Source of the DNA: Promethearchaeota archaeon
GTDB lineage: Archaea > Asgardarchaeota > Lokiarchaeia > Sigyniarchaeales > SOKP01
Direction of reading: 5' to 3'
Length of the DNA: 64,000 bases
NCBI GenBank assembly: GCA_019894975.1
Contig: JAGXNO010000004.1
Coordinates: 61,721-125,720 of the forward strand
This document shows positions 9,321 to 49,304 of this stretch, one piece after another (positions within the stretch are counted from its first letter, which is position 1; each line of letters begins with the position of its first letter). A program made the translations under genes and the position numbers. The notes beneath the pieces are model-generated. The model saw nothing but the letters and a program-made list of their open reading frames with translations, ran no database searches and was not told the DNA's origin.

Positions 9321-10308
9321 ATGACAGTAATAATCCAAAAAAGAGCTTACTTAACAATCGTAGCCGCATCAGTGAGATTTGCTAATGTCCGCATACCTAA
9401 AGATGATTGGTTAGAAGTGAGTGGTATTTTTACAGGTCGAAATGAAGGAAATGATGTTTTGGTTTCTAAAGCTTATCCCATTATGCATCAAGAACTAGAT
9501 AAAGATGCTGTTATCGATCAATACAAATGGTCAGATGAAGACTATGAATCACTTTATGTTATTGATGATGAAGCTTTTTCAAGAGATCCTCCTGAATTTG
9601 TTGTTGGTTGGTGGCACTCACATCCTGGTTTTATTTGAACTGGACTTACCAGACTTCAACTAAAAGGTTATGATGTCACATATCGATATTCGAACCACTC
9701 TCTCTTATCAGCAAAATAATCCTTTAGCAATTTCACTTGTATTTAATCCTCAAAGATTAATAAGACAAATTGAAGTTGCTGATAAAAAGGGAGACCCTGA
9801 TAAACAATTAAAAAATGATCCTGGGTTTAAAATTTTCCGATTAGATGATGTTAATAGTGGAACAGAAGCCTCTTATCATACTGCTGACTTTAAAATTGAA
9901 GAATATGAAAGCATGGAGCAGTTATTAAGGCTTACCCAAAAATTCATTGTTGATATAACTAATTTATTCCCAAAAGAGAAAGTTCCGCAAACTTATGAAA
10001 AAGTTGTGGATGAACGAATAGAACAATTAAACTCATTACTATTAGGTACTGAAGAATATTTAACAACATTAACCCGTCGTGGTGAAAAACATCGGATTCC
10101 CGAGGTACTAGAAAATCAAAATCAAGAAATTAACAGATTTATTGAAGAAACAAATAAGAAGATAGAGTTTATAAGAGAATTTATTGGATATTTAGAATTT
10201 AAAGAAAGAGACACTATAGTTCCTCAAGTGGAAAAGAATTTATCAAAGTGGGACGAGACTACGAAGGGTTTAGGAAAAAAGCTGAAAGATCTTTCCAAAA
10301 AGTTTTAA
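9321..10308 (+). CDS. MPN+/JAMM protease plus helical C-terminus; join(9321..9632,9664..10308), 318 aa after splicing
   Basis: ORFs 9321-9638 and 9670-10308 fuse after removing 9633-9663, giving GWWHSHPGF/KVMMSHID with exact HxH-x7-SxxD spacing. Confidence 0.85.
9633..9663 (+). other. Putative 31-nt BHB/BHL-type intron in mRNA
   Basis: Exon stem CCT/AGG; 4-bp helix GGTT(9627-30)/AACT(9658-61); 3-nt 3' bulge AA^A; 5' site TT^A; internal hairpin GAA-CTGG..CCAG-AC-TTC. Confidence 0.8.
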
Positions 10309-10445
10309 CCACTTTACAATCAAAAATATTTTTCATCTTATTTTTAATTTTGATAAATTTTTATTTGATTAAGCGTTAATTTGATTAAGAAAACTACGAG
10401 TCAAAATAATCGCTCTCTAGAGAAATAAAGATTGTATCTTCTATT

Positions 10446-12650
10446 ATGAAAAAACTTAATTTTCCATTCACAGCAATTCTCGGACAAGACAAGATGAAAA
10501 TGGGTTTAATTCTTAACCTAATTGATCCTTTAATTGGGGGAATCTTGATGACAGGTCAACAGGGTACAGGAAAAAGCACTGCTGTTAGAAGTCTCGTGGA
10601 ATTAATGCCCCAAATCGAAGTTATTAAAGGCTGCGATTTTTCTTGTGATCCTTATTCAGATGTAGATGATGTATGTGAAAACTGCAAAGAAAAAATCGAA
10701 AATAAAAATGTCGAAACGGAATTTAGAGACATGTGGTTGGTAAATCTACCTTTAGGGGTAACTGAGGACATGGTATGTGGCTCATTATCTATCGACAAGG
10801 TACTTACAGAGGGAATAAGAGCTTTACATCCTGGACTACTTGCTAAAGCAAATCGAGGAATTTTATATGTAGATGAAATTAATTTACTTCAGGATCATAT
10901 TGTTGATGTATTATTGGATTCTGCTGCTTCTGGTGTTAATATAATAGAAAGAGAGGGTATTTCAGTCTATCATCCCTCCAGATTCGTTCTTGTAGGAAGC
11001 ATGAATCCTGAAGAAGGAGACCTAAGACCACAAATTGCCGATCGTTTGGGTTTAGAGGTTCGGATCAAAGCCCCAAGAGATAATGAATTACGCGCTGAGA
11101 TAACCAAAAGAGTTATTAGTTTTGATGATAATCCAAAGGAATATATTAAACAATTTGAAAGTGACCAGGAAACACTCAGGAAGAAAATCATAAATGCTCG
11201 TAAGCTCGTAAAAGAAGTGCAAATACCTGGTTCAATATATGAATTTGTATCTAAAATCGTGAGTGAATTAGAAATATTCTCTCAAAGAGCAGATATTACT
11301 TTTATTCGATGTGCAAGAGCTAACGCTGCTTTAAATGCTAGGAAATTGATAACTAATGAAGATTTGACAGTAGCAATGGATTTGGTCTTTGAACACAGAA
11401 TTCAATCACTTCAATACGAAATGACTCCTGAAGAGATTAAATCTAAGATTGCAGAAGTTTATGGAAAAATTAAAGAAGCTTATGAAGATACGAATGTTCT
11501 TCAACCTAATCGAGAAACCGAGGGACCATTAAAACATGATGATGGGGAACAAAAAGAGTTTAAACGCCAATCTGTCGATCCTAATAAAGTAGATATCCCA
11601 GAATCAAGAGAACAGAAGCTCCCTCCGCCCAAATATCCTGATGATAAGAAGAGAAATCCTAAACCTGCTGGAGGTTGGAAAGTTAAAAATATTCCATATG
11701 ATGAAGATCTTCGATTTTTTGAAGCTAAAAATTCATCTCTACCATTTATATATCAAATGGAAAAAAAGATGACTTCCATCCTAGACAATATAAGAAAGGA
11801 TCGAAAGATTTCTGATTATGGAGGTAGAGGAATAGGTAGAAGAATTAAGATATCTTCATCTCAAAAAGGCAGATATGTATCATACAGATCACCTATGAGT
11901 GAACAGCCAAAACGGATTGCGTTAGATGCAACAATTAGGAATTATCTAAAAAATATAGCCTATAATGAAACTGATATAGATTTTCCAATACATTTTAACA
12001 AATATGATTTAATGGATAAGATTTATGAATACCGTGCTCCTTTAGCTCTTTTTTTTGTACTAGATAGTTCTGCATCCATGTATCATGTAATTAGACAAAT
12101 GACTGATGTAATATTAAGTCTGCATCGAGAAGGATATAGAAAAAGAGATAAAATATCTCTAATAATTTTTCGCGGTAAACAAGCTGTAGTTCTTCAGAAT
12201 CCCACTGTTAACTTTCAGATGGCGGTTAATAAATTGAAAAAGATCGAAGGTAAATCATACACACCCATGGCTGCAGCCCTTAAAAAGGTTTCAGATCTTA
12301 TCAAAATTGAAAAATTAAAGGATAGGAACATTATCCCAATTGTATTTGTATGTAGTGATTGTGGTGCTAATATTTCGGTCAAACATCCCGGTTTAATAGC
12401 TCAAGTTGAAACTGATTATATGTTAATTACAGAAGAACTGAAAGATTTAACAAAGAAATTATCAAAACAAAAAATACATATGGTGGTGCTGGAACCAAAA
12501 AAATCTTATGCTACTCAAGCTCTGGGGGTTCATACTTATTCCGCAGATAAAATTAAAAAGAATTTTAAAAAATATGCTGCTGCTCAGGTATATAAATTTA
12601 ACAAATACAATCCCAATTCATTAATTTTGGAATTGAAAAAAATTCTTTAG
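10446..12650 (+). CDS. Mg/Co-chelatase ChlI/ChlD-like AAA+ ATPase with C-terminal VWA domain
   Basis: Walker A GQQGTGKS, LYVDEINLL, SMNPEEG, Pro-rich linker, MIDAS DSSAS. Confidence 0.88.
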   Translation: MKKLNFPFTAILGQDKMKMGLILNLIDPLIGGILMTGQQGTGKSTAVRSLVELMPQIEVIKGCDFSCDPYSDVDDVCENCKEKIENKNVETEFRDMWLVNLPLGVTEDMVCGSLSIDKVLTEGIRALHPGLLAKANRGILYVDEINLLQDHIVDVLLDSAASGVNIIEREGISVYHPSRFVLVGSMNPEEGDLRPQIADRLGLEVRIKAPRDNELRAEITKRVISFDDNPKEYIKQFESDQETLRKKIINARKLVKEVQIPGSIYEFVSKIVSELEIFSQRADITFIRCARANAALNARKLITNEDLTVAMDLVFEHRIQSLQYEMTPEEIKSKIAEVYGKIKEAYEDTNVLQPNRETEGPLKHDDGEQKEFKRQSVDPNKVDIPESREQKLPPPKYPDDKKRNPKPAGGWKVKNIPYDEDLRFFEAKNSSLPFIYQMEKKMTSILDNIRKDRKISDYGGRGIGRRIKISSSQKGRYVSYRSPMSEQPKRIALDATIRNYLKNIAYNETDIDFPIHFNKYDLMDKIYEYRAPLALFFVLDSSASMYHVIRQMTDVILSLHREGYRKRDKISLIIFRGKQAVVLQNPTVNFQMAVNKLKKIEGKSYTPMAAALKKVSDLIKIEKLKDRNIIPIVFVCSDCGANISVKHPGLIAQVETDYMLITEELKDLTKKLSKQKIHMVVLEPKKSYATQALGVHTYSADKIKKNFKKYAAAQVYKFNKYNPNSLILELKKIL

Positions 12651-12735
12651 TTGTTAAAATATTTAATACACTTCAACAAAAGGTATAAAGGATTTCCTAG
12701 AAACTTCTTAAATTTTCTATTCTTAATGAAAATAG

Positions 12736-13983
12736 ATGGTAGATAAGACGAATTCTATTCTTGTAGTAGGCTTCAATACAAGACCGTTAGCTTATTCTTT
12801 GAATAAAGCAGGATATGAAATATATGCTGTAGATTTTTTTGGTGATTTGGATCTTTATCCAAGTGTGAAAGATAGTCTAATCTTGACTAAAGAGTTAGCA
12901 ACTAATTACGATTCAATTAAAAACAAATATGCTAAGCTATTTCCTGATTTTACAATAAAAATGTTGGAAAAGTATCCAGAAATAGATTATTTGATAATTG
13001 GAAGTGGATTAGATGATGCTTACAAAGAACGAGAAGATATTTTAAACGAAATACACAATGAGAAATATAAAATTATAAGTTTGAATAATGATGTAAAAAC
13101 AATCAAAAGAGCTCGTGATATTGAATTTATTTTCAAAAGGTTAAAAGCTCACGAATTTCGTGTCCCCTTTACCATATCTTATGATGGTTTAGAAAATTAT
13201 AGCAATAATCTTAGATTTCCATGTGTCCTCAAGAAAAAGAGGAGTGCTGGGGGAATAAATATTTTCAATATCAAAAATCCTGAGGAATTTTCGGCCATAA
13301 TTAAAAATTTAAAACTTAGGCAGTTTAATCCTTTAGACTGGGCGATTCAAGAATATATTAAAGGAATTCCTATTAGTTGTACAACTATATCAAATGGTAA
13401 AGAATGTGAAGTTATTTCGATAAATCAACAAATTATTGGGGAACAATTTTTAAATTCCCCAAAAGAGTTTATGTATTGTGGGAATATTGTACCTGCGGAT
13501 CTACAGGAAAGTGATGAACAACAAATATCCAAATTATCTATAATGCTATCAATTGAATTAGGTTTAAAAGGAATAAACGGGTTTGATTTTGTTTTGAAAG
13601 ACCATCGCCCATTTCTAATGGAAATAAATCCAAGAATCCCCGGGTCGATTAGAGCATCTGAAACAAGTTTAGGTTTGAATCTAATGGATTTACACATAAA
13701 AAGTTTTGCCCAAAATAAATGGGATAAAATTAAAAGTCAACTTAAATCATCAAAATTTAACTGCTATTCAACGAAATTTATATTTTTTGCCCCTAAGGAA
13801 ATCTATAAAACCCAAATTGTAAAAATAAATAACCTTGAAGGTATACATGATAAAACTGAACCAATAAGGAGTATATTAAAGGGGGAGCCTGTATGTACCA
13901 TTTTAGTTAAGAATAAAGTAAAATCGGAATCTTATAATAAAGCTTTAGAGATTGTCTCTAAAATCAATGAAATTATTGAATAA
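12736..13983 (+). CDS. ATP-grasp domain protein (archaeal C1/pterin-linked family)
   Basis: N-terminal VDFFGDLD, QEYIKG, GINGFDF, MEINPRIPGS. Confidence 0.8.
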   Translation: MVDKTNSILVVGFNTRPLAYSLNKAGYEIYAVDFFGDLDLYPSVKDSLILTKELATNYDSIKNKYAKLFPDFTIKMLEKYPEIDYLIIGSGLDDAYKEREDILNEIHNEKYKIISLNNDVKTIKRARDIEFIFKRLKAHEFRVPFTISYDGLENYSNNLRFPCVLKKKRSAGGINIFNIKNPEEFSAIIKNLKLRQFNPLDWAIQEYIKGIPISCTTISNGKECEVISINQQIIGEQFLNSPKEFMYCGNIVPADLQESDEQQISKLSIMLSIELGLKGINGFDFVLKDHRPFLMEINPRIPGSIRASETSLGLNLMDLHIKSFAQNKWDKIKSQLKSSKFNCYSTKFIFFAPKEIYKTQIVKINNLEGIHDKTEPIRSILKGEPVCTILVKNKVKSESYNKALEIVSKINEIIE

Positions 13984-14710
13984 TTGCTTTAATTTTGGCG
14001 ATAATTTGGTTTAATTTCCTCTCATCCGCTTCTGGAACTGCTAATGCAAGAATACGATTCTCATCCAAATCGTGAATAATGACAGATCCGTTATCCCCGC
14101 CGATTATAGAATACTCCATTCCACTTTCTAATAAAACACCTGATAAATTATATAGCGCTGCAACCATGGCTGATAGAATCGGTTCGGGCATAGTTGATTG
14201 AATTTTTATTGGTAAACCATCTTTTGTAATTATCGCTAGTACAAGGGTGTTAGGTATTGCTCTTTTCAATCCTTTGAATATCTCCTCTTTAAGGATATCA
14301 GAAGTCTCGATTATTGCCGAAATTTGTAAAGCTAATTTTTGTAATCTATTTATATGTGAATCCAATCCTTCAAGTTCTGCTAATTCTCGATTCAAATAAG
14401 TTATCATCGTAATATTTCCTGTGAGAATCGATAAGACAATTCGATCTTTCCCCGTAATTAAATTATATGCTACATCTTGGTTTAAGGAATCTTTTAACAT
14501 TTTAGACGAAAGGAATACTAAACTACTATTAGCTGCTGTAATCTCCCCCATTGTCATTTTAATCGACTTTTTAAACATATTTGCAATTTTAGTGCCTTCA
14601 GGAGTTCCAACATTAATTCCTAATAAAGCAGACGTTGATTCGAGTTCCTTTTCGAGGATATTAGATATATCCGATTCTAATTCCTCAAGAATCTTATCTT
14701 GTTCTTCCAT
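13973..14710 (-). CDS. Tandem Roadblock/LC7 domain protein
   Basis: Two repeats with GTPEGTKIA and ITKDGLPI..ILSAMVAAL roadblock patterns. Confidence 0.75.
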   Translation of the reverse strand: MEEQDKILEELESDISNILEKELESTSALLGINVGTPEGTKIANMFKKSIKMTMGEITAANSSLVFLSSKMLKDSLNQDVAYNLITGKDRIVLSILTGNITMITYLNRELAELEGLDSHINRLQKLALQISAIIETSDILKEEIFKGLKRAIPNTLVLAIITKDGLPIKIQSTMPEPILSAMVAALYNLSGVLLESGMEYSIIGGDNGSVIIHDLDENRILALAVPEADERKLNQIIAKIKAIIQ

Positions 14711-14772
14711 GAATCTATATTGTATATCTGAACATAAAAAGATAGTCTAATAATTCAGTAATAATAATAAAA

Positions 14773-15894
14773 TTGTATATGGAAATAAAATCTAATATTT
14801 ATATCATAATATTAGCTGCGGGGATAGCCACCAGATTAAAACCCCTCTCTGAAAAGATCCCAAAACCATTAATAGCTATTAGTGGTAAAACCCTTATATT
14901 CCGGATTATCTCGAATTTTAAAGAAGCAGGATTTAATAAATTCTGTATTGTTCTAGGTTATAAAAATGGGTTGGTTAAAAAGGAAATTTTAAAGATTAAA
15001 GATATTGAGGCGGATTTTATCGTTCAAAAAGAACCTACTGGTATGGCTGATGCTATTGCCTTCGCTATTAATTCCATCTTACTAAACCATAATGATGCCT
15101 CAAAATTCTTTATTACTGCAGCAGATATTATTTTCTCTAAAGAAGAGCTCTTGAAAATGTTTGAACTTCATAAAAAAGCTGATATTGTTTTAAGTTTGAT
15201 GAAATCTAATGATCTTGAGATTGCTAAAAGTCATGCAAATGTTAAAATATCAAAAGATTCAGGCTTAAGTAAAGATATCGATGAAAATCAAGGTTTAAGC
15301 TTAATCGATATAATTGAGAAACCGAAACCACAGGAGATTATGAGTGATTATTATTCATTGCCATTATATCTAACTAATCTGGAAATCTTGAGATATTTTA
15401 AGAATTTAGAAATATCTGAGCGTGGGGAAAGAGAATTTCAAGATGTTCTAAAAAATGCAATGCAAAATCATCTAGATATTCGAGGTATAAGAATTCTAAC
15501 TCCATTAATTACCGCAGAGAATATAGGGGAATTTCATTTAACCTGCTTACAAGATATAATTAGAATGAATAAAAGATTTTTAGTTGAAATTAAGAAGAAC
15601 TCGTTTAAAGGAAAAAAACCAAACATTATTGAACCATTAAGATTCGGAAACGATGTTAAAATCGGAGATAAATTGAAATTAGGCCCGTATGTTATTATTG
15701 GTGATTCATCCACTATAGGGGATTTTTCTGAGTTGTCCAATACAATTCTATTTAACAAGGTAAATTTAGGAAAATTCTGTGCATTAGAATGGTGTATTAT
15801 TGATGAGGGTGTATCTCTACCAGATAACTATTGTGCAAAAAATTGTTTTATCACGCGAGATAACAAAAATGATTTAGAAATCATAAATTTTTAA
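14773..15894 (+). CDS. Sugar-phosphate nucleotidyltransferase with C-terminal left-handed beta-helix
   Basis: ILAAGIATRLKPLSEKIPKPL, EKP, SERGERE, hexapeptide repeats. Confidence 0.85.
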   Translation: MYMEIKSNIYIIILAAGIATRLKPLSEKIPKPLIAISGKTLIFRIISNFKEAGFNKFCIVLGYKNGLVKKEILKIKDIEADFIVQKEPTGMADAIAFAINSILLNHNDASKFFITAADIIFSKEELLKMFELHKKADIVLSLMKSNDLEIAKSHANVKISKDSGLSKDIDENQGLSLIDIIEKPKPQEIMSDYYSLPLYLTNLEILRYFKNLEISERGEREFQDVLKNAMQNHLDIRGIRILTPLITAENIGEFHLTCLQDIIRMNKRFLVEIKKNSFKGKKPNIIEPLRFGNDVKIGDKLKLGPYVIIGDSSTIGDFSELSNTILFNKVNLGKFCALEWCIIDEGVSLPDNYCAKNCFITRDNKNDLEIINF

Positions 15895-15945
15895 ACTTTA
15901 CTTGGTATAGTAAATATTATAAATAGGAATTATTGTGATTTTGGT

Positions 15946-16758
15946 ATGGATGAGTATGAACGAATTAATGAATTGAAGAAGCTCTTAGAGACAAAAGAAA
16001 GGCTACTTCGTTTAAAAGACGAACAGGTACAAACTCTGGAAAATTCTTTAAAGTGGAAAGATGAGCAAATAAAAACACTGGAAAGTTCGCTAAGGATAAA
16101 AGATGAAAAGGCCAGCACACTAGAAAAAACAATTGAATTAAAAGAGGATGATATTAGGAAATTAACAGCAACTTCAATAAATAAAGATACTCTAAATGAA
16201 AAAGACGAGAAAATTTATCAGCTAGAAAAAGAATTAGAAATCCTTAACGATGAGTTAGCTAAAGCAGATGAAGATTTAGAAAGTTTAGAGCTTGAAAATG
16301 AGAAATTAAGAAAAGAGGAATCAAGTTCAACCGATAAAATTATCGATTTTACTAACGTAAAAATCACTAAAACCGAAATTCTTGAAAAGATGAGAGAAAT
16401 GCTTCCAAACGCTATCTCTAATGTAACCATTGTCGTCCCAGGAATAGAAGATTTGCAAGACCTGTACTTATATGAGGTTAGATCTTCTGTCGCTATGAAT
16501 ATCTGCTGCTCAATTAATCTTGAAAATGATGAACATTCTGAGCTCCATCAAGAATTCGAATCTTTAGATAATATTACAATCAAAAATTATGAACAAAAGG
16601 ATAGGATAGGTATTGTTAGAGATGCAGAAGAATTACTTATTGGAGTTATAGGTTCTTCAGAAACGAATCATTTAGTATCGCATACAAAAGATCCCAAGCA
16701 TATTCGATTGTTAAATTCATTGATAACCGAAGCTTGGATACGAAGCAGGAAAGTATAG
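15946..16758 (+). CDS. Coiled-coil protein with C-terminal TrmB/PLD-like domain
   Basis: 14-aa repeats (LKDEQVQTLENSLK/WKDEQIKTLESSLR); C-terminal alpha/beta domain resembling that of 50264-52204. Confidence 0.55.
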   Translation: MDEYERINELKKLLETKERLLRLKDEQVQTLENSLKWKDEQIKTLESSLRIKDEKASTLEKTIELKEDDIRKLTATSINKDTLNEKDEKIYQLEKELEILNDELAKADEDLESLELENEKLRKEESSSTDKIIDFTNVKITKTEILEKMREMLPNAISNVTIVVPGIEDLQDLYLYEVRSSVAMNICCSINLENDEHSELHQEFESLDNITIKNYEQKDRIGIVRDAEELLIGVIGSSETNHLVSHTKDPKHIRLLNSLITEAWIRSRKV

Positions 16759-16784
16759 AACTGCACATGTAAAATATTTTGAAA

Positions 16785-17507
16785 TTAAAAGAAAGGACAT
16801 TTCCCTTTCTCACATTTATCATTTATTTCTGAGAAATTACATTTATTATGCTCATAATTCATTTCAATGTTAAATTTCTCTTTTAAAAAGTCGAGTGTTT
16901 CACATATTGCTAATTTAACTGATCGTTTGCAACAATGCTCCAAATTATCCGCTATTTTAGCTAATGATTTTGAGGTCATTTCATTTGCAAGTGACCTCTG
17001 TGTGTTTGTTGAAGGCGTTGCTCCTGTCATAATACTAACTGCTATCCCAAATCCCATGCCTGCTCCACAAGAATCATAAAACCCACACCATCCTCCTGGT
17101 ATTTTAGACGCCCTTCTAATCCCTTCTTTAATATCAAACGGGGTAATGTCATCGCCATTTACCTTTTTTATATCATTATTTTTAAGGGCGGTTAGAATCA
17201 CCGCGGGAGTCAATACATGGTGTTCGGGACCATAAACCTTAAATTTATGATGTTTCATTATCAAATCTGCTAATTTAAAAGGATCTTTGATATTTGTTTC
17301 TTCACAAATTCTTTCGATAATTTCAATTGGATTTTTAGAATGACAATTATCACAAATATAATGTCCTTTTTCGCAGTAAATATTAGTAGTGAAAGACTCT
17401 TCACAGAACATACAGGTTAAATTCCGATGATTTTTCGGATCTGTTGCATATACCAAATTCCCCCCGCAAAATTCACACTTATCACTCTTTTTCTCTTTCA
17501 TTTTCAA
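16785..17507 (-). CDS. Cys-rich DUF5714-like protein
   Basis: CEFCG, CMFC, CEKGHYICDNCH, GPEHH, GGWCGFYDSCGAG, CCKRS. Confidence 0.7.
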   Translation of the reverse strand: MKMKEKKSDKCEFCGGNLVYATDPKNHRNLTCMFCEESFTTNIYCEKGHYICDNCHSKNPIEIIERICEETNIKDPFKLADLIMKHHKFKVYGPEHHVLTPAVILTALKNNDIKKVNGDDITPFDIKEGIRRASKIPGGWCGFYDSCGAGMGFGIAVSIMTGATPSTNTQRSLANEMTSKSLAKIADNLEHCCKRSVKLAICETLDFLKEKFNIEMNYEHNKCNFSEINDKCEKGKCPFF

Positions 17508-17520
17508 TCATCCTTAATAT

Positions 17521-18372
17521 TTAAATTTCTATAAATGTCCTTTTTCTATTATGATAATGTGCTAATTCACTATATCCTATCCTTTTTAAGATTTCTATCA
17601 TCTTATCAAATTTCCACGCAATCTCTTCTGGCCTATGGGCATCTGATCCTAATAAAACAGGGATATCAAGAAAGAACATCTCCTTTATAATTTGTACACT
17701 CGGATATTGTTCTTTACAATCTTTCCTCAATCCCCCTGTATTAATTTCCATTGCTACACCTTTTTTCTTAATTTGCTCAAGGGTCCTCATCATTTCCTCA
17801 TATACTTTCTCTTTATCTGTTGGGATATCATTAAATTTCTTTGGTAAATCAAAATGGGAAATTATATCAAAATCGAATTTGTCTGAATTTACCATTTTTT
17901 GTATCGACTGGTAATAGAATAAGTACACCGCATCGACTCCATAATACTCATATTCTTTTCTGAATCGGGAATCATCAAATCCCCATGCTCCTCTCCCATT
18001 AAAAAAGTTTAATATATGTATTGAACCTAAAATAAAATCTAACCTTTTTTTAATGGGATTTAAGTGAGTATTTAAAGCTGATTCTTGGTTTTTAAAATAA
18101 TCTATTTCAAAACCAATTCTAACAGTGATATCTTGTTTATATTTCTCTTTCAATTCCTCAGAGGTTGTTAGATATTTTTCGATTTCAGGTAGTGCTATAG
18201 CATATTCTTCATAAGGAATTCTCTCAATATCATTTAGAAATTCATAAGGAAAATGATCACTGACTCCGATTGTTTTTAATTTGAATTCTATCGCAATCTT
18301 CACATATTCCTCAATTTTACCGACTGCATGTTTGCACCCTTGGTTGTGAGTGTGCCAGTCTCCATATGCCAT
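17521..18372 (-). CDS. Histidinol-phosphatase, PHP (HisJ/HisK) family
   Basis: DWHTH..CKHA, SDH, GSIH, SHFDLPKK, EINTGG, GSDAH. Confidence 0.85.
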   Translation of the reverse strand: MAYGDWHTHNQGCKHAVGKIEEYVKIAIEFKLKTIGVSDHFPYEFLNDIERIPYEEYAIALPEIEKYLTTSEELKEKYKQDITVRIGFEIDYFKNQESALNTHLNPIKKRLDFILGSIHILNFFNGRGAWGFDDSRFRKEYEYYGVDAVYLFYYQSIQKMVNSDKFDFDIISHFDLPKKFNDIPTDKEKVYEEMMRTLEQIKKKGVAMEINTGGLRKDCKEQYPSVQIIKEMFFLDIPVLLGSDAHRPEEIAWKFDKMIEILKRIGYSELAHYHNRKRTFIEI

Positions 18373-18473
18373 TGAATAAAGATAATAGTCAAATTAAGAT
18401 AAAAATAATTATTCTAGAAGATAAACTGTTTATATTTATAATGGAATATAAAATAATTTGAAGGTAATCCTAT

Positions 18474-19744: not shown

Positions 19745-19862
19745 TATTCTTTCATATCAATATCCATTTTTTTTCAATTATAATTTCACTTGATATAAAA
19801 TGGAAAAAATTTCTTATTAATTATGGTTTAAGATTAAATAAGATTTAAAATATTTTAGAAAT

Positions 19863-21608: not shown

Positions 21609-21616
21609 CAAATTCA

Positions 21617-37111: not shown

Positions 37112-37137
37112 GATTACTTAAATTTTGTCTTTTAAAT

Positions 37138-37656: not shown

Positions 37657-37823
37657 TTGTTTTTTATGAAAAGTTATGAATAGCTATATGATATATAATA
37701 GAAATTAAAACATCTATTTATTTTAATACCTCTTAATTTACTACATTTCAATATTTAGTTTTTTATACATTCTCGTTAAGAAATTGGTGTTAAATTCAAA
37801 TTTAATTCTTGAATTTAGGGAAC

Positions 37824-40079: not shown

Positions 40080-40194
40080 AAATTAAAGCTCCTCTCTCTT
40101 GATAACCTAATATAATCAATGAATTAATATTTAAATATTAATTAAATTCTTCAATATAATTTATTAAATTATATTCTTAAGAATTAGCATAATA

Positions 40195-40794: not shown

Positions 40795-40796
40795 TC

Positions 40797-41168
40797 ATGC
40801 CAGAGGGGATATTTGTAATGAACTATAGGGATAAAGGTGGAATAGCAATTAAGGCTCAGTATCCCGAAGAGAAAATAAAATTGCATGAAAGCGCTCAAAT
40901 GCATATTCTTAACATTCATGAGTTTAGCAAAGAATCAGGAATTGCCAGTTTGACTGTGGATGATCTAAATATCACCACTTATTATTCCGGGGAGGATACA
41001 GATTACTTTATTGTAGTCAAATTGGATTCTCTTGAAGACCCTGATGACTTTGAGGAAAATCTTAAGGTAGTTTCACAGATTATTTTAGGTAATTTAGAGA
41101 ATAATAAATATAAAGAAATGCTTCCTTCTCTTTTCAAAAAAATATCAGGGGCTCCTGAGAATATTTAG
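40797..41168 (+). CDS. Stand-alone longin-like domain protein
   Basis: GIFVMNYRDKGGIAIKAQYP N-terminal hairpin; beta-beta-alpha-beta-beta-beta-alpha-alpha pattern. Confidence 0.55.
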   Translation: MPEGIFVMNYRDKGGIAIKAQYPEEKIKLHESAQMHILNIHEFSKESGIASLTVDDLNITTYYSGEDTDYFIVVKLDSLEDPDDFEENLKVVSQIILGNLENNKYKEMLPSLFKKISGAPENI

Positions 41169-41305
41169 AAATGAATTTGTAAAAAAGTTACAAAACAAAA
41201 TGCTCCTTTATATTTAGGAAGAGATAATTTGGAATAATTAATAAAAACTTAAATCTATAATAAACATAGAACTGCGAAAATATCATTATATTAAGTGGTG
41301 TTAAT

Positions 41306-43696
41306 TTGAAGATTGGATTATTTTTATGCGATTGTGGAAAAAATATTAGTGGTACTATTAATAATGAACAGTTGATTGAGCATTTTAGCAAATTTCCTGA
41401 TGTGCATGTATTAAAAGATCAATATTTATGTTCTGAACTAGGCTTAAATAATGTCACTGAAGAGATTAAAGAAAAAAAAATCGATAGGGTGGTAATTGCC
41501 GCATGTTCATTTAAACTACACGGATTATTATTTCGAAGAACTATCGAAAAGGCAGGTATTAATCGATTTTTGATATCTTTTGCTAATATTCGTGAACAAA
41601 ATTCATGGGTACATGCTGATGAGCCTGAAAGGGCAACCATAAAGGCGATCGATCAAGTTACTATGGCACTAGAAAGAGTCAGGCTTCTAGAACCTTTAGA
41701 TCTTCAATATTCCGAAATTAATCCCTCTACTTTGATAATTGGAGGCGGGATTGCAGGAATCAAAGCCGCTTTAATAATTGCTAATGCGGGATATCGTGTG
41801 TACTTAGTGGAAAAAGAGCCAACAATAGGTGGGCATATGGCTCTCTTCGATAAAACATTTCCTACTTTAGACTGTTCAATCTGTATTCTTGGACCTTTGA
41901 TGTCAGAAATTAAAGATCACCCTAATATCGAACTCCTTTCATACTCAGAAGTCGAACGGGTTAATGGTTACGTTGGAAATTTTGAGGTTAAAATCAAAAA
42001 ACACCCTCGTTTTATCAAAGAAGATGATTGTGTTGGATGTTTTGATATCTGTCGAGAAGTATGCCCAATTGATATAGAAGATACTTTTTTCCCAAGGAAG
42101 GCAATAGATATTCCCTATCCTCAAGCTATACCGTTATTTCCCAATATTTTAGAAGAATATTGTATTGGATGCAAGGTTTGTGCTCAGGCATGCGATAGAG
42201 ATGCAATCGATTTTGATCAAAAACCAGAAATTATTGATATTCAAGTGGGTTCAATAATTGTAGCAACTGGGTTAAAAACATTTGATCCTTCATTACTTGG
42301 TGAATATAATTATCTAAAAAGTCCAGATATTTTAACTACAATGCAAATGGAACGGATACTCAATAATGATGGGCCTTCTCATGGAAAAATCACGGTTCCT
42401 TCAAGCGGTAAACCTCCAAAGAAGGTTTCCTTTATTTTGTGTGTAGGATCTCGTAATAAACAAATTCACCATGAATATTGTAGTCAAGTGTGTTGTAATG
42501 TGGCGATAAAACAAGCAGTGTTAATCAAAAAAGAACATCCTGACACAGAAATTAATATCTATTATAATGATATCAGAGCCAATGGCAAAAATTGTGAAGA
42601 ATTTTATAATAGAGCACGGGAAACTTTCGGTATCAGATTTATAAAAAGCAATATTTCTGCTGTACTAAAAAGCGACACTTCGGATACCTTACTCGTTCGA
42701 GGAGAAGATGTAATTGAAGATAATTTATTTGAAAATAAAACAGATTTAGTTGTTTTGGCTGTTGGTATAGAACCTGCTGATAAGACTGATGAATTAAGTA
42801 AAATTTTGAATATTTCTCAAGATCCCAATGGGTTTTTATTAGAAAAACACCTAAAAGTTAGACCTTCGGAAACTTCTGTCAACGGAATTTTTCTCGCAGG
42901 TGCAATACAAGGACCTAAAGATATACCCTCTAGTATTGCCCAAGCAGAAAGTGCTGCAGCAAAAACAATTTCTCTAATTTCAATGGGAAAAGTTGAAATG
43001 GACCCCCATATTGTCTATTTTAATCAAAAAGATTGTGACTTATGTAGGTTATGTGAAAATATCTGTATGTTTAATGCCTTAAAAATCGAAGGTAATCAAT
43101 TGAAAATCACCCAGGCAAATTGTACTGGATGTGGGGCATGTGCTGCAATGTGCCACTCTGATGCGCTATACATTCCTGGATTTACAAAAATGCAGATTTC
43201 AGCTCAAATCCAATCTATTTTAAAACAAAAAAGTGAATCTCCATTAATTATTGCATTCTTATGTAATTGGTGTTCTTATACCGGAGCGGATCTTGCGGGA
43301 ACAAGTAAATTAACATATCCTACAAATGTAAGAACGATCCATGTTATGTGTACAGCAATGCTTAATCCCTCCTTAGTATTTGAAAGTTTTTTCTATGGAG
43401 CTGATGGTGTTTTAATTGCGGGGTGTTATCCACAAGATTGCCATTATCAAGAAGGATTCATTAAAGCAAAATCTCGATATGAGAGTATTAAGGAAGTGTT
43501 AATCGAAGCTGGGATAAATGAAAAAAGAGTAAAAATTATAAGTATCGCTGCGGGAGAAGGAGAGAAGTATGCAAAGTCCATTAAAGAATTTAAGCAAGAA
43601 CTAGATAAAATTGGCCCTATAAAGCCTAATGAATATGCAAAACCTTTATCATCCAAAAAGCAAACAGAAGAAAAAGCAAAATTGGATGAAATTTAA
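41306..43696 (+). CDS. hdrA: HdrA-MvhD fusion (FAD/FeS electron-bifurcating subunit)
   Basis: GLFLCDCG, ANIREQ, GGGIAG, DKTFPTLDCSIC, CVGSR, CSQVCC, ferredoxin motifs; C-terminal MvhD CNWCSY...GC..QDCHY. Confidence 0.93.
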   Translation: MKIGLFLCDCGKNISGTINNEQLIEHFSKFPDVHVLKDQYLCSELGLNNVTEEIKEKKIDRVVIAACSFKLHGLLFRRTIEKAGINRFLISFANIREQNSWVHADEPERATIKAIDQVTMALERVRLLEPLDLQYSEINPSTLIIGGGIAGIKAALIIANAGYRVYLVEKEPTIGGHMALFDKTFPTLDCSICILGPLMSEIKDHPNIELLSYSEVERVNGYVGNFEVKIKKHPRFIKEDDCVGCFDICREVCPIDIEDTFFPRKAIDIPYPQAIPLFPNILEEYCIGCKVCAQACDRDAIDFDQKPEIIDIQVGSIIVATGLKTFDPSLLGEYNYLKSPDILTTMQMERILNNDGPSHGKITVPSSGKPPKKVSFILCVGSRNKQIHHEYCSQVCCNVAIKQAVLIKKEHPDTEINIYYNDIRANGKNCEEFYNRARETFGIRFIKSNISAVLKSDTSDTLLVRGEDVIEDNLFENKTDLVVLAVGIEPADKTDELSKILNISQDPNGFLLEKHLKVRPSETSVNGIFLAGAIQGPKDIPSSIAQAESAAAKTISLISMGKVEMDPHIVYFNQKDCDLCRLCENICMFNALKIEGNQLKITQANCTGCGACAAMCHSDALYIPGFTKMQISAQIQSILKQKSESPLIIAFLCNWCSYTGADLAGTSKLTYPTNVRTIHVMCTAMLNPSLVFESFFYGADGVLIAGCYPQDCHYQEGFIKAKSRYESIKEVLIEAGINEKRVKIISIAAGEGEKYAKSIKEFKQELDKIGPIKPNEYAKPLSSKKQTEEKAKLDEI

Positions 43697-43822
43697 ATCA
43701 TAGTTCAATTAAAGATATAAACGAATTTAACTAAAATTTCTTAACCAGAAATATTAATTTTTTATTGATATCTCTCCTATAATTCTTATTAAAAGAATAT
43801 ATTTTAATTCTGTCGACTAAAA

Positions 43823-45109
43823 ATGCGAATAAGAGCAATCACTAACGGGCAAATTATCCCTTTCCTTTACAAAAATGAATCCATCTTATCCTTCATGCAA
43901 GAGAACCTTGAGAACTTTTCAAACTTAAATAATGAGTTAATTAATGCTTTTGAAGACATCGGAGTACAAGTTCAGACCAGGCGATTTTGCTCTCAACCTC
44001 TTTTTAGTTATGATAATAAATTATTTTACGAGAATAATTTAAAGGATACATTGGGAGATATAAAAGTCCAATTAAGATTTTTACAGAACATATTCCAAGA
44101 TTATGGTTTCGATTATTTTGCGTGTTGCATGATGCTTACCCACAAACTTCCCGAGCTAGGAATATTTGAGAGACTACTTCTTAATGAAGTTCCTGTATTT
44201 ATTAAAAATACTGACAATTTTTTCACTTCTTTACCCGTAGCTTCTACTCGAGATGGAATAAATATAACTGCCATAAAATCTGGGGCAAAAATAATAAAAC
44301 AACTCTCGGAACCAGATCCATTCAATAATTTAAATTTTTGTGTATCCGCAAATGTAGGGCCTAACTTTCCATTTTTCCCTGCAGCATATCATTTTTCAGA
44401 TAAACCTGCATTTTCTCTTGCTTTAGAAATGGCAGATGAAGTAATTATGGCAATCGAAGAATCAAATAGCCTAAAAGAAACCCAATTTAATTTGCTGTCA
44501 AAGTTTAATCAAATCTATGATGACGTGACATTCATTTGTGAGAAATTGGGACGGAAATTTGATATGGAATTTAAGGGTGTGGATCTTTCTCCGGCACCTT
44601 TCCCTGAGGAAAATAAGAGCATCGGGACAGCGATTGAAAAACTGGGCATTGAATATTTTGGAGCTAATGGTACACTTACAGGAGTTGCTCTAATTAAAAA
44701 TTCTATTCCAATTGATAAAGAAAAAGTTATTGGATTTTCAGGCTTCTTCCAACCGATCTTAGAGGATTATATCTTATCTAAAAGACTTGCTGAAGGCAAA
44801 TTTAACCTGGATTCACTATTGTTATACTCAACCATGTGTGGTGCAGGGTTAGATGTTATCCCATTACCTGGAGACATAACTGAGCAAGAATTATTCTATA
44901 TATTATTAGACCTTTGCACTATTTCAATCAGATTGAATAAACCGTTAACAGCTCGCTTAATGCCTATTCCTGGAAGAAATGTGGGTGATGAAGTTGAATT
45001 TGATTTTGAATATTTTGCACCTTCAAGGATTATTGACTTTCGTCGATTAACAGGTAATAAAAAGGATGATCTCTTTAATAGCAATGAAAAATTCTTCAAA
45101 TTTCTGTGA
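43823..45109 (+). CDS. DUF711 (UPF0210)-family protein
   Basis: PFFPAAYH, GVDLSPAP, GFSGFFQPILED, YSTMCGAGLDVIPLPG, KPLTARLMP. Confidence 0.8.
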   Translation: MRIRAITNGQIIPFLYKNESILSFMQENLENFSNLNNELINAFEDIGVQVQTRRFCSQPLFSYDNKLFYENNLKDTLGDIKVQLRFLQNIFQDYGFDYFACCMMLTHKLPELGIFERLLLNEVPVFIKNTDNFFTSLPVASTRDGINITAIKSGAKIIKQLSEPDPFNNLNFCVSANVGPNFPFFPAAYHFSDKPAFSLALEMADEVIMAIEESNSLKETQFNLLSKFNQIYDDVTFICEKLGRKFDMEFKGVDLSPAPFPEENKSIGTAIEKLGIEYFGANGTLTGVALIKNSIPIDKEKVIGFSGFFQPILEDYILSKRLAEGKFNLDSLLLYSTMCGAGLDVIPLPGDITEQELFYILLDLCTISIRLNKPLTARLMPIPGRNVGDEVEFDFEYFAPSRIIDFRRLTGNKKDDLFNSNEKFFKFL

Positions 45110-45143
45110 ATAAATTACGGATTTGAAAAATAGAAAAGCTCTA

Positions 45144-45473
45144 TTATAAATAGTCTACTACTTGTCCACTTTGAGTAATTTCAAAATAGATTATATTATT
45201 TTCTTCCACTTTTTTAACACAAAACGCTTTGACTAAATAATCCATGTTATAATTAAATGAAGATTCATCGCTAATTAAGTCGTTATTTAATAGAGTTTTT
45301 AACAAATCTTCTTTAGAAATCTTTTTAGCCTTATTAACTAGAATAAGAATTTCGCGACGAATTGGATGGTTGACCGCTTTAAGATATAAGGAGTGTAAAT
45401 ACTTTGAACCTTCCACAGTTTTACCATACTCTTCCATTGATTTGTAATCCTTAAAATCAGATTCATCAGGCAT
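45144..45473 (-). CDS. ArsR-like winged-helix protein
   Basis: AVNHPIRREIL, FNYNMDYL, EITQSG. Confidence 0.75.
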   Translation of the reverse strand: MPDESDFKDYKSMEEYGKTVEGSKYLHSLYLKAVNHPIRREILILVNKAKKISKEDLLKTLLNNDLISDESSFNYNMDYLVKAFCVKKVEENNIIYFEITQSGQVVDYL

Positions 45474-45595
45474 GTGTGTGAAAAATGCTCATAACAATTA
45501 AATTTTATCGAAAAGATGATTGTAGTTTTTAAATATTAACTTATAAGGTTTTATATAACAAGAGCATCAAGAAATTTCTAACAAGATGTATAGAT

Positions 45596-45880
45596 ATGGA
45601 AAAACCCAAAATTTTGAATGGAGCTAAAATTGAACCCATTACCAGTAAAGTAAAAGTCGCTAATAAAATAGACTCTTTATGGGATGGGAATTCTTCAAAT
45701 GGGGCTAAATTCAAAACTCGAAATAAGAAATTAGTTATAAAACTAGAATCCCAAGGAATTGAAACAAGAAAAATTTCTCTAAAATTGGAAAGTAGCAATT
45801 CAAATGTAAATACCAATAACTACAATCTCTTATCGGACATCTTAAAAGAATTTTTTAATGTTGATGATAATTCATCATAA
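45596..45880 (+). CDS. Hypothetical protein
   Basis: 94-aa ORF filling the gap; no motif recognised. Confidence 0.5.
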   Translation: MEKPKILNGAKIEPITSKVKVANKIDSLWDGNSSNGAKFKTRNKKLVIKLESQGIETRKISLKLESSNSNVNTNNYNLLSDILKEFFNVDDNSS

Positions 45881-46028
45881 TTTTTCGTCTTATTTTCTAC
45901 TCTAAATTAATGGATTGTTCTTATGGTAGTAAAGCTTTACGATATAATATCGCAGAAAACTATTTTATTCTCGGTATCTTATTTTTCTTTAATTTGAAAT
46001 TCGTAAAAATAATAAGAATGATATAAAA

Positions 46029-47090
46029 ATGGAATATAATGATATTAAGAATCTTCTAGGTGCAAAGGCAGATGATCTTTTAAACCATAGATGTACTGGA
46101 ATTCCAAAGGAGATGATTCATGCTCCAGGTCCTGATTATATTGATAGAGTGTTTGAACACACAGATAGAAATAATTTAGTACTAAACAATATGGGAAAAT
46201 TATTTAATTTAAGGGGTAGATTAGCAGGTACAGGTTATCTTTCAATTTTGCCTGTAGATCAAGGAATCGAACATACTGCTTCAGCAAGTTTTGCAATCAA
46301 TCCCTCATATTTTGACCCTGAAAATATAGTCAAATTAGCTATTGATGGAGGTTGTAGTGGGGTTGCTTCTACTCTCGGAGTATTAGGTTCTGTTGCAAGA
46401 CGTTATGCTCGTAAAATTCCTTTTATAGTAAAAATTAATCATAATGAGCTTCTTACTACACCCAATTTATCTGATCAAACACTTTTTGCTAACGTTGACC
46501 AAGCGTGGGATATGGGTGCTACTGGTATTGGAGCAACAATTTATTTCGGTTCCCCAAATTGTAGACGTCAAATTCAGGAAATAAGTGAAGCATTTAGATA
46601 TGCTCATGAATTGGGTCTAGTTTGCATTTTGTGGACATACTTAAGGAATACAGATGAATTCATAAAGGATGGAAAAGATTACCACACAGCAAACGATTTA
46701 GAAAGCCAAGCAAATTATCTAGGTGTAACTATTGAAGCAGATATCATCAAGCAGAAGCTATCTACTACAAATAGAGGATTTCTTGATTTAAATTTTGGAA
46801 AAACAGATAAACTAGTTTATGAGAAGTTAGCAACCGATCACCCAATCGAATGGAACCGTTACCAAGTTGCAAATTGCTATATGGGTCGAATAGGATTAAT
46901 CAATTCCGGTGGCCCCGAAGGAGATAATGATTTAGCTGATGCAGTATCCGCAGCGGTTATAAATAAGCGTTCTGGAGGCATGGGATTAATTCTTGGTCGT
47001 AAAGCGTTTAAAAGACCTACTTCTGAAGGAATAAAAATATTAAATGCGGTGCAGGACGTATATTTATCTAATGAAATAACAATAGCGTAA
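46029..47090 (+). CDS. fbaB: Class I fructose-bisphosphate aldolase (DhnA/FbaB)
   Basis: [45 protein letters not shown]. Confidence 0.95.
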
Positions 47091-47224
47091 AGATTCACAC
47101 TTTTTTTTTCTAATTTTAAATTTCGATTTCTAATTTGAAGTTAATAAGATAAATGAAATTTTCAGCTTTTAATTGAAACTAATTGAATTAAGTACATCTA
47201 ATTTTATATAAATTAAAAGGAATT

Positions 47225-48346
47225 TTAATCATCCATGCTAGGAATTTTAGGTAATTGTCTTCTACCACTTGGATTATTACTAATAGGTTTTTCTAGAATT
47301 TCAATAATATCAGCTTTTCGAGCAGTTGGTGGTAATTCTATTTTTTTGTCTTCAGCATAACTTTTAAGATCTTTTACTGTCATTGAATTAAAGTCTATTG
47401 AACCAGTCGGCATTGATTTTGGTTTGGTCGGCATTGGTGTCAAAGGTGCTTTTGCCGGACTGGCTTTTTTTGGACTGCTCCTTGGTTCTCCTTCCTTTTC
47501 TAATATTTCTACTGCTTCTACTATACCTTTTTCTCCATCAAAATAAATCCTTAATACATAATCCTCTAATTCAATCATATCCTTAGGAACTTTTGTAACT
47601 GGTTCCCATTCAGTTTCTTCAACTTCCTCTCCAAAAACTTTAGCTATTTTTGAGACTGCTGCTAATAGAGTGTGACCAAGAATTAAATTTATTCTTTTGT
47701 AGCTGTCTGAAATTTCGGCATTAAGGATTTTCTCTTTAATCTTTTCTTGTTCATCTTTTGACAAGCCTGCTACGGTTCTAGTCACAGGAGTTTTAGGGTA
47801 CGGAGTTATAGGTTTTGGTTTAGGTGCACTAGCTGGTTTAGAAGAGCCAGTTGAAAAAGTAGAGGTAACGACATTGCTGGATGTATCCTGAAGAGCAGGA
47901 GAGAAATATTCTTCTTCTTTCTTCTCAGTTGTTTGAGGAACAACATCAGAAATAACCGCTTCACTCATTTGTTCCTTTTCAATGTTTCGAACATATCGCA
48001 TATCTGCCAACCTTTCAGTTACTTCCATGGATTCTAATTGAAACGCACTTAGAAATTCCGAAGGTTCGTCACCAGCATCCACGGAGACGATTTTACATCG
48101 ATGCATGCTTGCATCCTTTCTCAGTTCCTCCTGGAGTTCTTGAGCGACTCTAGAACTAATAAATCGTTTTCGCACAGGTGATTTTGGACCTTTCCAAATG
48201 AAGATTCTTCTTAAATCTTCGCGTATGATTACCAATACCTGTTCTGGATGCAAATTTGACTGGAGTTCTGCTTCAGGTATGCTAATTCTATTTTTATCTC
48301 CGGAATCATCCAGTTCATATACCATAAAAGTTTCATATTCTGTCAT
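47225..48346 (-). CDS. Gelsolin-domain protein with Pro-rich linkers and C-terminal Rho-N/SAP-like helix-extension-helix
   Basis: LHPEQVLVI..RRIFIWKGPKSPVRKRF..VDAGDEPSEF gelsolin pattern; FNSMTVKDLKSYA..ARKADIIEIL. Confidence 0.8.
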   Translation of the reverse strand: MTEYETFMVYELDDSGDKNRISIPEAELQSNLHPEQVLVIIREDLRRIFIWKGPKSPVRKRFISSRVAQELQEELRKDASMHRCKIVSVDAGDEPSEFLSAFQLESMEVTERLADMRYVRNIEKEQMSEAVISDVVPQTTEKKEEEYFSPALQDTSSNVVTSTFSTGSSKPASAPKPKPITPYPKTPVTRTVAGLSKDEQEKIKEKILNAEISDSYKRINLILGHTLLAAVSKIAKVFGEEVEETEWEPVTKVPKDMIELEDYVLRIYFDGEKGIVEAVEILEKEGEPRSSPKKASPAKAPLTPMPTKPKSMPTGSIDFNSMTVKDLKSYAEDKKIELPPTARKADIIEILEKPISNNPSGRRQLPKIPSMDD

Positions 48347-48563
48347 TTTTATTCCCTAAGAATATCATATGTAATTTTTTAATTGGAGTATGAAATTTTT
48401 TTAGAATTCTATTTGAAATTTCTTTTCAAACGGATTTAATTTAAAGAACATATAAATTACATTTATAAAAATTTAGCGAAAAAAGAAAATGAGAAGTCAT
48501 TCTTTTGTGGTAATTTTTTGGTCCCTATTAATAAATAAAAAATTGAAAAAAAAAAGTTAAAAG

Positions 48564-49304
48564 TTACATATCATGCAGAACGTTATCTATAGAGAGGACA
48601 AATCCTAACAAGATCCTTCTATCTGTTTCATTGTCGAGTATCCTTAATGCGTATGTATCCTTAAAATCCATTAATCCACCAAGAAATACGTCTCTCCACC
48701 TGTCAGCCTTCTCAATTTCTGCAATTAATTTTCCTGACATGTCAGTAACTTTATAGGACCATCCCATAAATTTACCCTGAGCTTCGAAATACCTTTTTCC
48801 ATTAACATCTTCTAAGTAAAACTTCGGTCGGAAGACAGAAGTTATTTTTTTCTTTATCCTGGCTATCATATTCCCATATGGATCTTTTAAATCCTGAGCT
48901 CCGCGAGCTGAGACAATCTTGGCGTGAATTGTTGCTGCAATAGTACCATCTAATTCGATTAATTCAACTCTGCGTCTTATACTTAAGATAACTCTTTTCA
49001 TCCTCCCTATTACCTGGTTTTTTTCATCTAAGATATCACCGCTACCCCATTTGGGTTTAAATCTGGAGAAGATTTAAATATCCCAGTATTTTTCTTTGAG
49101 AATAAAATAATTGCGGTTAATATCGAATAGTCCCCCAGGACGATCATAAGGTTCAAACCCTAGTGTTGTTATGGGAGTACTTGTTGATGGTGTAGAAACG
49201 ACTTCCCTTTGTTGTTGAGGAGATGGTATTGCTGAACCACATTTCTCACAGAAGTGCTGATTTTCGGGATCTTTTATTTCAGCCCCACAATCTTTACAAA
49301 ACAT
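48564..49304 (-). CDS. Zinc-ribbon plus LURP-one/scramblase (tubby C-like) protein; join of 49304..49080 and 49049..48564, 236 aa after splicing
   Basis: CKDCG..CEKCG N-terminus; spliced junction KEKYWD/WGSGDILDEKNQVIGRMKR; C-terminal DTYAL..RRILLGFVLSID. Confidence 0.82.
49050..49079 (-). other. Putative 30-nt canonical BHB intron in mRNA
   Basis: TGGG[AT^A]TTTAAATCT-TCTCC-AGATTTAAA-CCCA[AA^T]: 4-bp helix TGGG/CCCA, two 3-nt bulges, 9-bp intron stem; contains in-frame TAA. Confidence 0.85.

Follow-up and report, generated by a model that had tools for sequence, protein, structure and literature searches.

Two protein-coding genes in a 64,000-nucleotide (nt) stretch of an Asgard archaeal genome (Promethearchaeota archaeon, assembly GCA_019894975.1, contig JAGXNO010000004.1, positions 61,721 to 125,720; hereafter the window) are interrupted by short inserts, one of 31 nt in a gene with a JAB/MPN domain and one of 30 nt in a gene that joins a zinc ribbon to a LURP-one (LOR) domain. 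Both are probably spliced archaeal introns of the bulge-helix-bulge (BHB) type lying within coding sequence, a reading to which genomic comparison leads us to assign a probability of roughly 0.85. The inserts are precisely placed, their structure covaries between species, the exons downstream of them are under selection, the genome encodes the enzymes of tRNA splicing, and inserts of this class are multiple. Comparison with dozens of related genomes indicates that they must be cut from the mRNA by the tRNA-splicing enzymes. These results support the presence of EndA-type mRNA introns, several per genome and with turnover, in an Asgard archaeon.

Two inserts at exact codon boundaries

The window belongs to a metagenome-assembled genome (MAG) of 3.93 Mb in 175 contigs, with 31.6% GC and 8.55% estimated contamination (G000 below). 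On its plus strand, the JAB/MPN open reading frame (ORF) at 9321-9638 stops at a TGA just past the residues WWHSHPGF, and the domain resumes at 9664 in the +1 frame. Exon 1 (9321-9632, 104 codons, ending in WWHSHPGF) matches Pfam JAB (PF01398) with an E value of 4e-8 over profile positions 5-97 of 117, and its residues 1-104 align to uninterrupted orthologs. Exon 2 (9664-10308, 214 codons plus stop) starts with KVMMSHID. The 31 nt between them (intron 1, 9633-9663, ATTTGAACTGGACTTACCAGACTTCAACTAA) have TGA as their second codon, shift the frame by +1, and are flanked by CAT CCT GGT TTT upstream and AAG GTT ATG ATG downstream. Deletion of 9633-9663 gives HSHPGFKVMMSHID, and the joined protein, HSHPGF↓KVMMSHID (the arrow marks the junction here and below), has the JAMM spacing H-x-H-x7-S-x2-D.

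On the minus strand, the zinc-ribbon ORF ends in KEKYWDI-TAA, and the LURP-one domain (PF04525) follows in the same frame. Exon 1 (49080-49304, 75 codons) ends in KEKYWD and has a Zn_Ribbon_1 match; exon 2 (48564-49049, 161 codons plus stop) matches Pfam LOR (PF04525) with an E value of 1.3e-8 over profile positions 32-186 of 187. Intron 2 (49050-49079, 30 nt, ATTTAAATCTTCTCCAGATTTAAACCCAAA) is in frame, has TAA as its second codon, and is preceded by TAC TGG GAT and followed by TGG GGT AGC; its deletion joins the exons. Without splicing, the stop in the second codon of each intron means that both mRNAs give a truncated product.

Relatives without the inserts define their ends. Orthologs of JAB exon 1 were found in all 36 same-genus genomes sampled first. 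In most of these, tblastn places the two exons back to back in an open frame of 320-340 amino acids (aa), and in six, G000 included, a gap of 30-32 nt lies at exactly this codon boundary. In a wider set of named public Promethearchaeota/Promethearchaeia MAG records, 57 of 68 genes are contiguous and 11 (about one in six) have an insert of 29-32 nt at the same nucleotide position; intron 1 is exactly the extra DNA relative to the 57 contiguous orthologs. The JAB inserts are mutually homologous, sharing a TGGAnTTnCCA apex and a TT(T)AGCTAA tail, and their stems come in two forms, type A (ATTTGAAC...) and type B (AAAAG...). The LOR exons are contiguous in about 32 of 50 genomes of the genus, with open frames of 235-260 aa, and interrupted in about 18 (one in three). 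The LOR gene has two insertion sites 12 nt apart: site A, as in the window (...TACTGGGAT↓ATTTAAA...), and site B upstream of it (...AAGGAA↓AAATCC...TTCTTTAA↓AAATATTGGG).

A prior interpretation made without relatives or database searches (the sequence-only reading) had placed both inserts at these positions as phase-0 introns that start with ATTT(G/A)AA, end with AA and carry TGA and TAA as second codons. The contiguous exons of most relatives and the homologous inserts of others bear this out. That reading had also seen a shared motif, CCAGAYTTYAA, which fits intron 1 only; intron 2 reads CCAGATTTAAA.

Covarying pairing across the junctions

An archaeal BHB intron has three helices. In helix H, four nucleotides of exon 1, ending 2 nt short of the cut, pair with four of the intron, ending 2 nt short of its 3' end; helix h' is formed by the intron body, and helix h by exon 1 with exon 2. 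Each bulge is cut between its second and third base, a rule stated for cbf5 (PMC2738675). The junctions that restore the reading frame lie after the second bulge base in both window introns, and also in the EF-1alpha, BcrAD, C101 and C164 introns described below.

In the JAB gene, the exon strand GGTT (9627-9630) pairs with the intron strand AACT (9658-9661). The 5' cut would fall past TT (9631-9632), and AACT is followed by a 3-nt bulge, AA↓A (9662-9664), with the 3' cut after 9663. An outer helix h, seen in the sequence and in pair counts, pairs CCT (9624-9626) with AGG (9665-9667). In the LOR gene, on the minus strand, the exon strand TGGG (49082-49085) pairs with the intron strand CCCA (49052-49055), the bulges are AT↓A (49081-49079) on the 5' side and AA↓T (49051-49049) on the 3' side, and the intron body forms a 9-bp stem h' (49070-49078 with 49056-49064) closed by the loop TCTCC. 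The sequence-only reading had noticed that the four nucleotides before the terminal AA of each intron (AACT, CCCA) complement the GGTT and TGGG lying 2 nt before the 5' junction. This match is helix H of a BHB, and it is compensatory across species.

Helix H of the JAB gene is fully paired in both sets of orthologous introns compared (six and seven), as GGTT/AACT, GGCT/AGCT or GACT/AGTT. Exon changes, whether synonymous or not, have intron counterparts: the change GGT to GGC is matched by the intron change AACT to AGCT, and GGC to GAC by AGCT to AGTT. Across seven species with type B introns, 90.5% of positions are paired and six pairs have changed on both sides, compared with 1.3 expected; none of 500 shuffles reaches this value. 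Both bulges of the type B orthologs are 3 nt long, and their h is 67% paired. Each variant has one well-formed half: type A keeps h, and type B keeps an h' adjoining H while h decays.

At LOR site A, the intron strand of helix H varies among CCCA, CCTG, CTCA and CTCG, each of which pairs with TGGG, so that H is 100% paired. The stem is 96.8% paired in seven species, with four pairs changed on both sides. Overall, 98% of cells in these species are paired, compared with at most 68% when the partners are slid, and the covariation score is 0.43, compared with 0.25 for shuffled alignments (0 of 500 shuffles as high).

Purifying selection on the exons downstream of the inserts is strong. JAB exon 2 is open over its full length in all six intron-bearing orthologs, and the ratio of nonsynonymous to synonymous substitution rates (dN/dS) is 0.07-0.15, at dS of 0.16-2.4 that exceeds 1 in 13 of 15 pairs; exon-1 pairs involving L033 were left out for indel distortion. 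LOR exon 2 is free of stops in 12 of 12 intron-bearing orthologs, with a median dN/dS of 0.039 (range 0.012-0.095) on a protein-guided codon alignment. The orthologous LOR inserts conserve no peptide, and several carry two stops.

Splicing machinery and proposed mechanism

The sequence-only reading had asked for the architecture of the splicing endonuclease and for the ligase, and alpha-like and beta-like EndA paralogs, one catalytic and one non-catalytic, and RtcB are all present in the genome. Two genes of about 200 aa each contain the EndA domain (PF01974; 101 and 66 bits). By motifs read from the sequence, the EndA on contig C22 has the catalytic Y/H/K pattern (...FVVY..., ...EHS..., ...VRKK...), and the one on C55 has F, Q and other residues at the catalytic places. 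RtcB, on C90, is found with 562 bits. The pair would fit an (alpha-beta)2 enzyme, the type reported for Asgard EndA, with an L1 loop that confers relaxed specificity (PMC5829648). A suspected break in the AtpA gene beside EndA proved to be a locus-edge effect, and that gene is intact.

In the proposed mechanism, the end of exon 1 would pair in the pre-mRNA with the 4 nt before the last two bases of the intron to form helix H, and the intron body would fold as a 7-9-bp hairpin h', leaving the junctions in short bulges on opposite strands. Heteromeric EndA would cut after the second base of each bulge. RtcB would then join the exons, restoring a single frame that in the MPN gene completes the JAMM active-site motif and in the other gene fuses the zinc ribbon to the LURP-one domain. 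We infer that EndA and RtcB are the acting enzymes and that splicing is efficient and constitutive.

The same genome has tRNA genes with introns. Aragorn finds 16 tRNA genes, six of them with introns, and Rfam RF00005 finds 29, about ten of which are 101-113 nt long; the tRNA set is heavily disrupted and probably incompletely detected. Some apparent tRNA introns lie outside position 37/38. A simple motif finder applied to the tRNA introns of G000 gave no clean picture.

Further inserts in this genome and its relatives

The genome holds at least eight verified mRNA introns, all of 30-31 nt. Besides the two in the window, they lie in the genes for EF-1alpha (30 nt, DAPGHAD↓FVKNMITG), a BcrAD/BadFG activator (30 nt, phase 2, MND-K-CAAGTGRFLE), an acyl-CoA synthetase/ligase on C101 (31 nt), a UXS-type sugar epimerase on C164 (31 nt, phase 1), a hexapeptide-repeat protein on C55 (31 nt) and a CobO-type adenosyltransferase on C115 (30 nt, inside the GKGKTTAA P-loop). 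The BcrAD_BadFG gene matches its Pfam profile over the full length (1-271) with one TAA inside, and its insert is in frame. The EF-1alpha, BcrAD, C101 and C164 inserts are convincing top matches of the structural scan described below; those on C101 and C164 were also found by the pairwise census, as were those on C55 and C115.

The census compared G000 with 76% of G005, a closed relative (CP070831.1; 3.34-Mb chromosome, 90% complete by markers), running every ORF of 80 aa or more through tblastn in both directions, and its count is a lower bound. Five inserts are present in G000 and absent from G005: those of JAB, C101, C164 and C55 (31 nt each) and that of the CobO-type gene on C115 (30 nt). 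Found in G005 only are 30-nt inserts in a UPP synthase (UPPS; DG↓NRRW), a MoaB/CinA-like gene (GGL↓GPT), a zinc-ribbon gene and a repeated gene in two copies, at about 337487 and 691070, where the insert carries a stop (TAAAATTAAGCAATCTGCTTAGTCTGGGTA; YSCNL↓CAVTFGAFGMKK). The intron of the two-copy gene has evidently been duplicated together with its host. Every credible ORF-breaking insert is 30-31 nt long (five in G000, at least three in G005), often inside a conserved motif. The sequence-only reading had extrapolated two hosts in 64 kb to many per genome, and more such introns do exist genome-wide, at a density of about 10-20 per 3.9 Mb, far below the roughly 120 that the extrapolation gives; G000 plausibly holds 10-20 mRNA introns.

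A structural scan of G000 looked for helix H, a 3-nt bulge and a hairpin with 4 bp or more wherever two open frames, each 60 codons or longer, would be fused. It served as a candidate list only, and its matches C36, C115:24024, C89 and C99 stand outside the verified count. The match at C84:40623 was rejected as a false positive in which the supposed intron codes for the DEAD-box segment VLVATDVAS in another frame.

The EF-1alpha gene of G000 is the only one above the TIGR00483 cut-off (583.6 bits), and its 30-nt in-frame insert contains two TAA codons. This insert is absent from the other 50 genomes of the genus with a match, 29 of whose junctions were read base by base. Other species carry inserts elsewhere in the gene: at about codon 12, before the P-loop, in G018 (L310, ~1471-1500, about 30-32 nt); in the P-loop, GHIDHGK↓ST, in G001 (L312, 2766-2736, minus strand, 32 nt, with a 4-bp Watson-Crick helix H, ATGG/CCAT), and apparently the same in G004 and G064; and near the C-terminus in G068 (L311, minus strand, about 1250 nt into the gene, about 30-32 nt). 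The gene thus has at least four insertion sites within one genus. Across the class, 12 of 147 EF-1alpha genes have in-frame stops, and the phenomenon extends beyond G000. In G005, no EF-1alpha gene is detectable on the chromosome with TIGR00483, the best match being a paralog at 112 bits; either the assembly is incomplete or the gene lies in pieces too small to score. As a separate observation, the EF-1alpha gene of G018 has a second in-frame stop at alignment position 167, without an insertion; it is TAA by elimination, one TAA being counted within profile positions 12-423.

The inserts are one structural and size class of about 30 nt and not a sequence family. The sequence-only reading had taken the two window introns for one family, but blastn finds no intron paralogs, and the CCAGA block is not conserved among the orthologous LOR introns. 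A blastn-short search of seven introns against G000 returned only self matches and chance matches of 15-20 nt, and origin from a repeated element was rejected on the basis of sequence. An ATTT(A/G) start recurs in the JAB, LOR, UPPS and G001 EF-1alpha introns, but the genome is AT-rich. Phases 1 and 2 occur besides phase 0 among the introns of G000, and phase 0 is no rule.

Alternative explanations

Several results weigh against the BHB-intron reading. Both window introns depart from the strict hBHBh' form, which has two 3-nt bulges together with h and h', and show relaxed forms only. In the LOR intron, the exon-exon helix h that closes the 3' bulge consists of one C-G pair, and the z-score of the fold is only -0.7. 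The JAB intron of G000, a type A intron, is well formed on the 3' side, with a clean AA↓A bulge and an h of 3 bp, but its 5' bulge spans 6 nt, and the unconstrained minimum-free-energy fold favours a competing UUUA/UAAA pairing. The C55 and CobO-type C115 inserts are off the canonical BHB register entirely. The genome-wide BHB search that the sequence-only reading had proposed gives no overall enrichment, with 2318 matches in G000 compared with 2303 in the mirror-image control, the scan being swamped by noise from gene boundaries; an excess appears solely in the class with a stem of 7 bp or more and a length of 25-33 nt (15 compared with 3). All the genomes compared are MAGs, in which variation within populations is invisible, and the excision from mRNA is itself something we infer from DNA. 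The single well-formed half of each JAB variant is the hBH or HBh' pattern reported from hosts with a relaxed-specificity EndA, and such relaxed forms count as BHB introns in hosts with an (alpha-beta)2 enzyme (PMC5829648).

Alternatively, the mRNA might stay uncut, with ribosomes skipping the 30-31 nt in the manner of T4 gene 60 or reading through the stop. A stop just past the junction followed by a hairpin does superficially resemble a bypass element, and the LOR, EF-1alpha and BcrAD inserts are in frame, but we consider such recoding quite improbable. The absence of matched take-off and landing codons (TTT...AAG in JAB, GAT...TGG in LOR) and the frame-changing bypass that inserts of 31-32 nt would demand argue against bypassing. 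Orthologous inserts keep no peptide and often contain two stops, and what they do conserve, with compensation, is the pairing of exon 1 with the 3' end of the intron, as EndA needs; we know of no bypass signal that involves such pairing. The variation of the inserts, which is RNA-like (compensatory) and not codon-like, together with the two stops in several of them, argues against read-through and against the view that the inserts are small mobile or repair-derived hairpins that have turned their carriers into pseudogenes. Patchy presence among close relatives and the truncation of unspliced products would suit inactivation, yet the downstream exons are intact, with dN/dS of 0.04-0.15 at saturated dS across intron-bearing species, the sole EF-1alpha gene carries the same class of insert, and insert sizes are uniform at 30-31 nt, which makes inactivation very improbable.

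An error of assembly or sequencing has next to no likelihood: the MAG is in 175 contigs with 8.55% estimated contamination and its EF-1alpha insert is unique to it, but homologous inserts lie at the same sites in many independently assembled genomes, including the closed CP070831.1 for LOR. Finally, EndA and RtcB might splice conditionally, so that the introns act as an on/off switch like HAC1/XBP1 and are not passengers removed constitutively. Unspliced mRNA does yield a truncated product, and the position of several introns coincides exactly with a catalytic or nucleotide-binding motif. The hosts, however, share no function (MPN, LURP-one, EF-1alpha, acyl-CoA ligase, sugar epimerase, CobO, BcrAD), and their closest relatives manage without the intron; neutral or selfish passengers fit better, and we regard a switch as unlikely.

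Gain and loss

The introns are distributed patchily on gene trees. In a tree of LOR exon 2 from 30 species, the states none, A and B require 12 changes, the same as with shuffled labels, and well-supported sister pairs differ in intron state. The JAB tree (67 taxa) requires nine changes, and the nearest relatives of the window gene are without the intron. Orthologous introns are recognisably homologous and roughly track clades, which points to gain before the genus radiated and to many exact losses afterwards; this would be the simplest history of the two window introns. At least four EF-1alpha sites in one genus, each occupied in one or a few species, indicate recent gains and support the description of these introns as spreading in the sequence-only reading. 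Together, the patterns suggest that introns in the genus descend vertically, that exact losses are frequent, and that new sites are occupied from time to time.

More broadly, Promethearchaeia may carry an active, turning-over population of endonuclease-spliced introns of about 30 nt in coding genes, with single-species gains and repeated precise losses; we see the odds of this as evenly balanced. If true, routine mRNA splicing and the turnover of coding-sequence introns would be features of the archaeal lineage closest to eukaryotes, and the splicing would rely on the tRNA-splicing machinery, an inheritance shared with eukaryotes. With fast, patchy turnover of introns whose homology can still be recognised, the genus is a natural system in which to study how introns are gained and precisely lost.

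Relation to known systems

A BHB intron in the pre-mRNA of crenarchaeal cbf5 (pseudouridine synthase) was reportedly described by Watanabe in 2002 and Yoshinari in 2006. In the searchable literature, splicing within archaeal coding sequence is confirmed for cbf5 of Crenarchaeota only, the subject of the study by Yokobori in 2009, and other cases are called predicted (PMC2738675). The inserts described here resemble the cbf5 intron in being short, in lying within coding sequence at the location of a catalytic motif, in their mostly relaxed BHB with (here predicted) cuts after the second bulge base, in a host whose EndA is (here probably) heteromeric and of relaxed specificity, and in their patchy gain and loss. 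They differ in their phylum (Asgard, Promethearchaeota), in having at least eight unrelated host genes per genome and not one, in their uniform length of about 30 nt, and in the several sites per gene within one genus (two in LOR, at least four in EF-1alpha). Splicing is confirmed for cbf5 and predicted for the Asgard inserts. The CBF5 gene of G000 (TIGR00425) is itself uninterrupted, with one open frame of 344 aa, no internal stop and no intron at the catalytic Asp codon.

The introns of archaeal pre-tRNA and pre-rRNA have the same geometry (H, h' and bulged cut sites) and presumably the same enzymes, and G000 itself has many intron-bearing tRNA genes. Among the tRNA introns of Thermoproteales are non-canonical and transposing ones. 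The inserts studied here differ in having an mRNA host, where reading frame, stops and translation all come into play. The splicing of HAC1 and XBP1, to which the sequence-only reading had compared the window introns, is non-spliceosomal, with cuts by Ire1 and joining by tRNA ligase or RtcB. The likeness, an analogy and not membership, lies in a protein endonuclease acting at structured mRNA sites, a tRNA-type ligase and a changed frame in the product; the differences are that Ire1 is not an EndA/TSEN enzyme, that it has a single regulated target, and that it recognises a stem-loop and not a BHB.

Searches of the accessible literature for BHB introns in Asgard archaea or Lokiarchaeota found no description of mRNA inserts of this kind. 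Archaeal mRNA splicing has been seen as a curiosity of one gene, cbf5; about 10-20 spliced genes per genome, with essential EF-1alpha among them, would turn it into an ordinary part of gene expression in these organisms. Since the hosts are Asgard archaea, the finding bears on how protein genes with interruptions, and the means of dealing with them, could have arisen before spliceosomal introns or in parallel with them. At present, annotation wrongly renders such genes as two ORFs, as a frameshift or as a pseudogene, which distorts metabolic reconstruction and completeness estimates of Asgard MAGs.

Additional observations

Outside the window, the CobO-type insert at about 6330-6360 on the minus strand of C115 (GRGK↓...↓GKTTAA) lies between two 11-nt direct repeats, GGTAAAACAAC, that are 36 nt apart; the repeats may hint at how such inserts arise. 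On C132 (14872-15006, minus strand), a 127-nt insertion relative to G005 breaks a conserved gene (PPFPEHP↓QTAMGGDVLSRL) and is too long for the 30-nt class. Its reverse strand seemed, by eye, to hold an open frame of about 40 codons.

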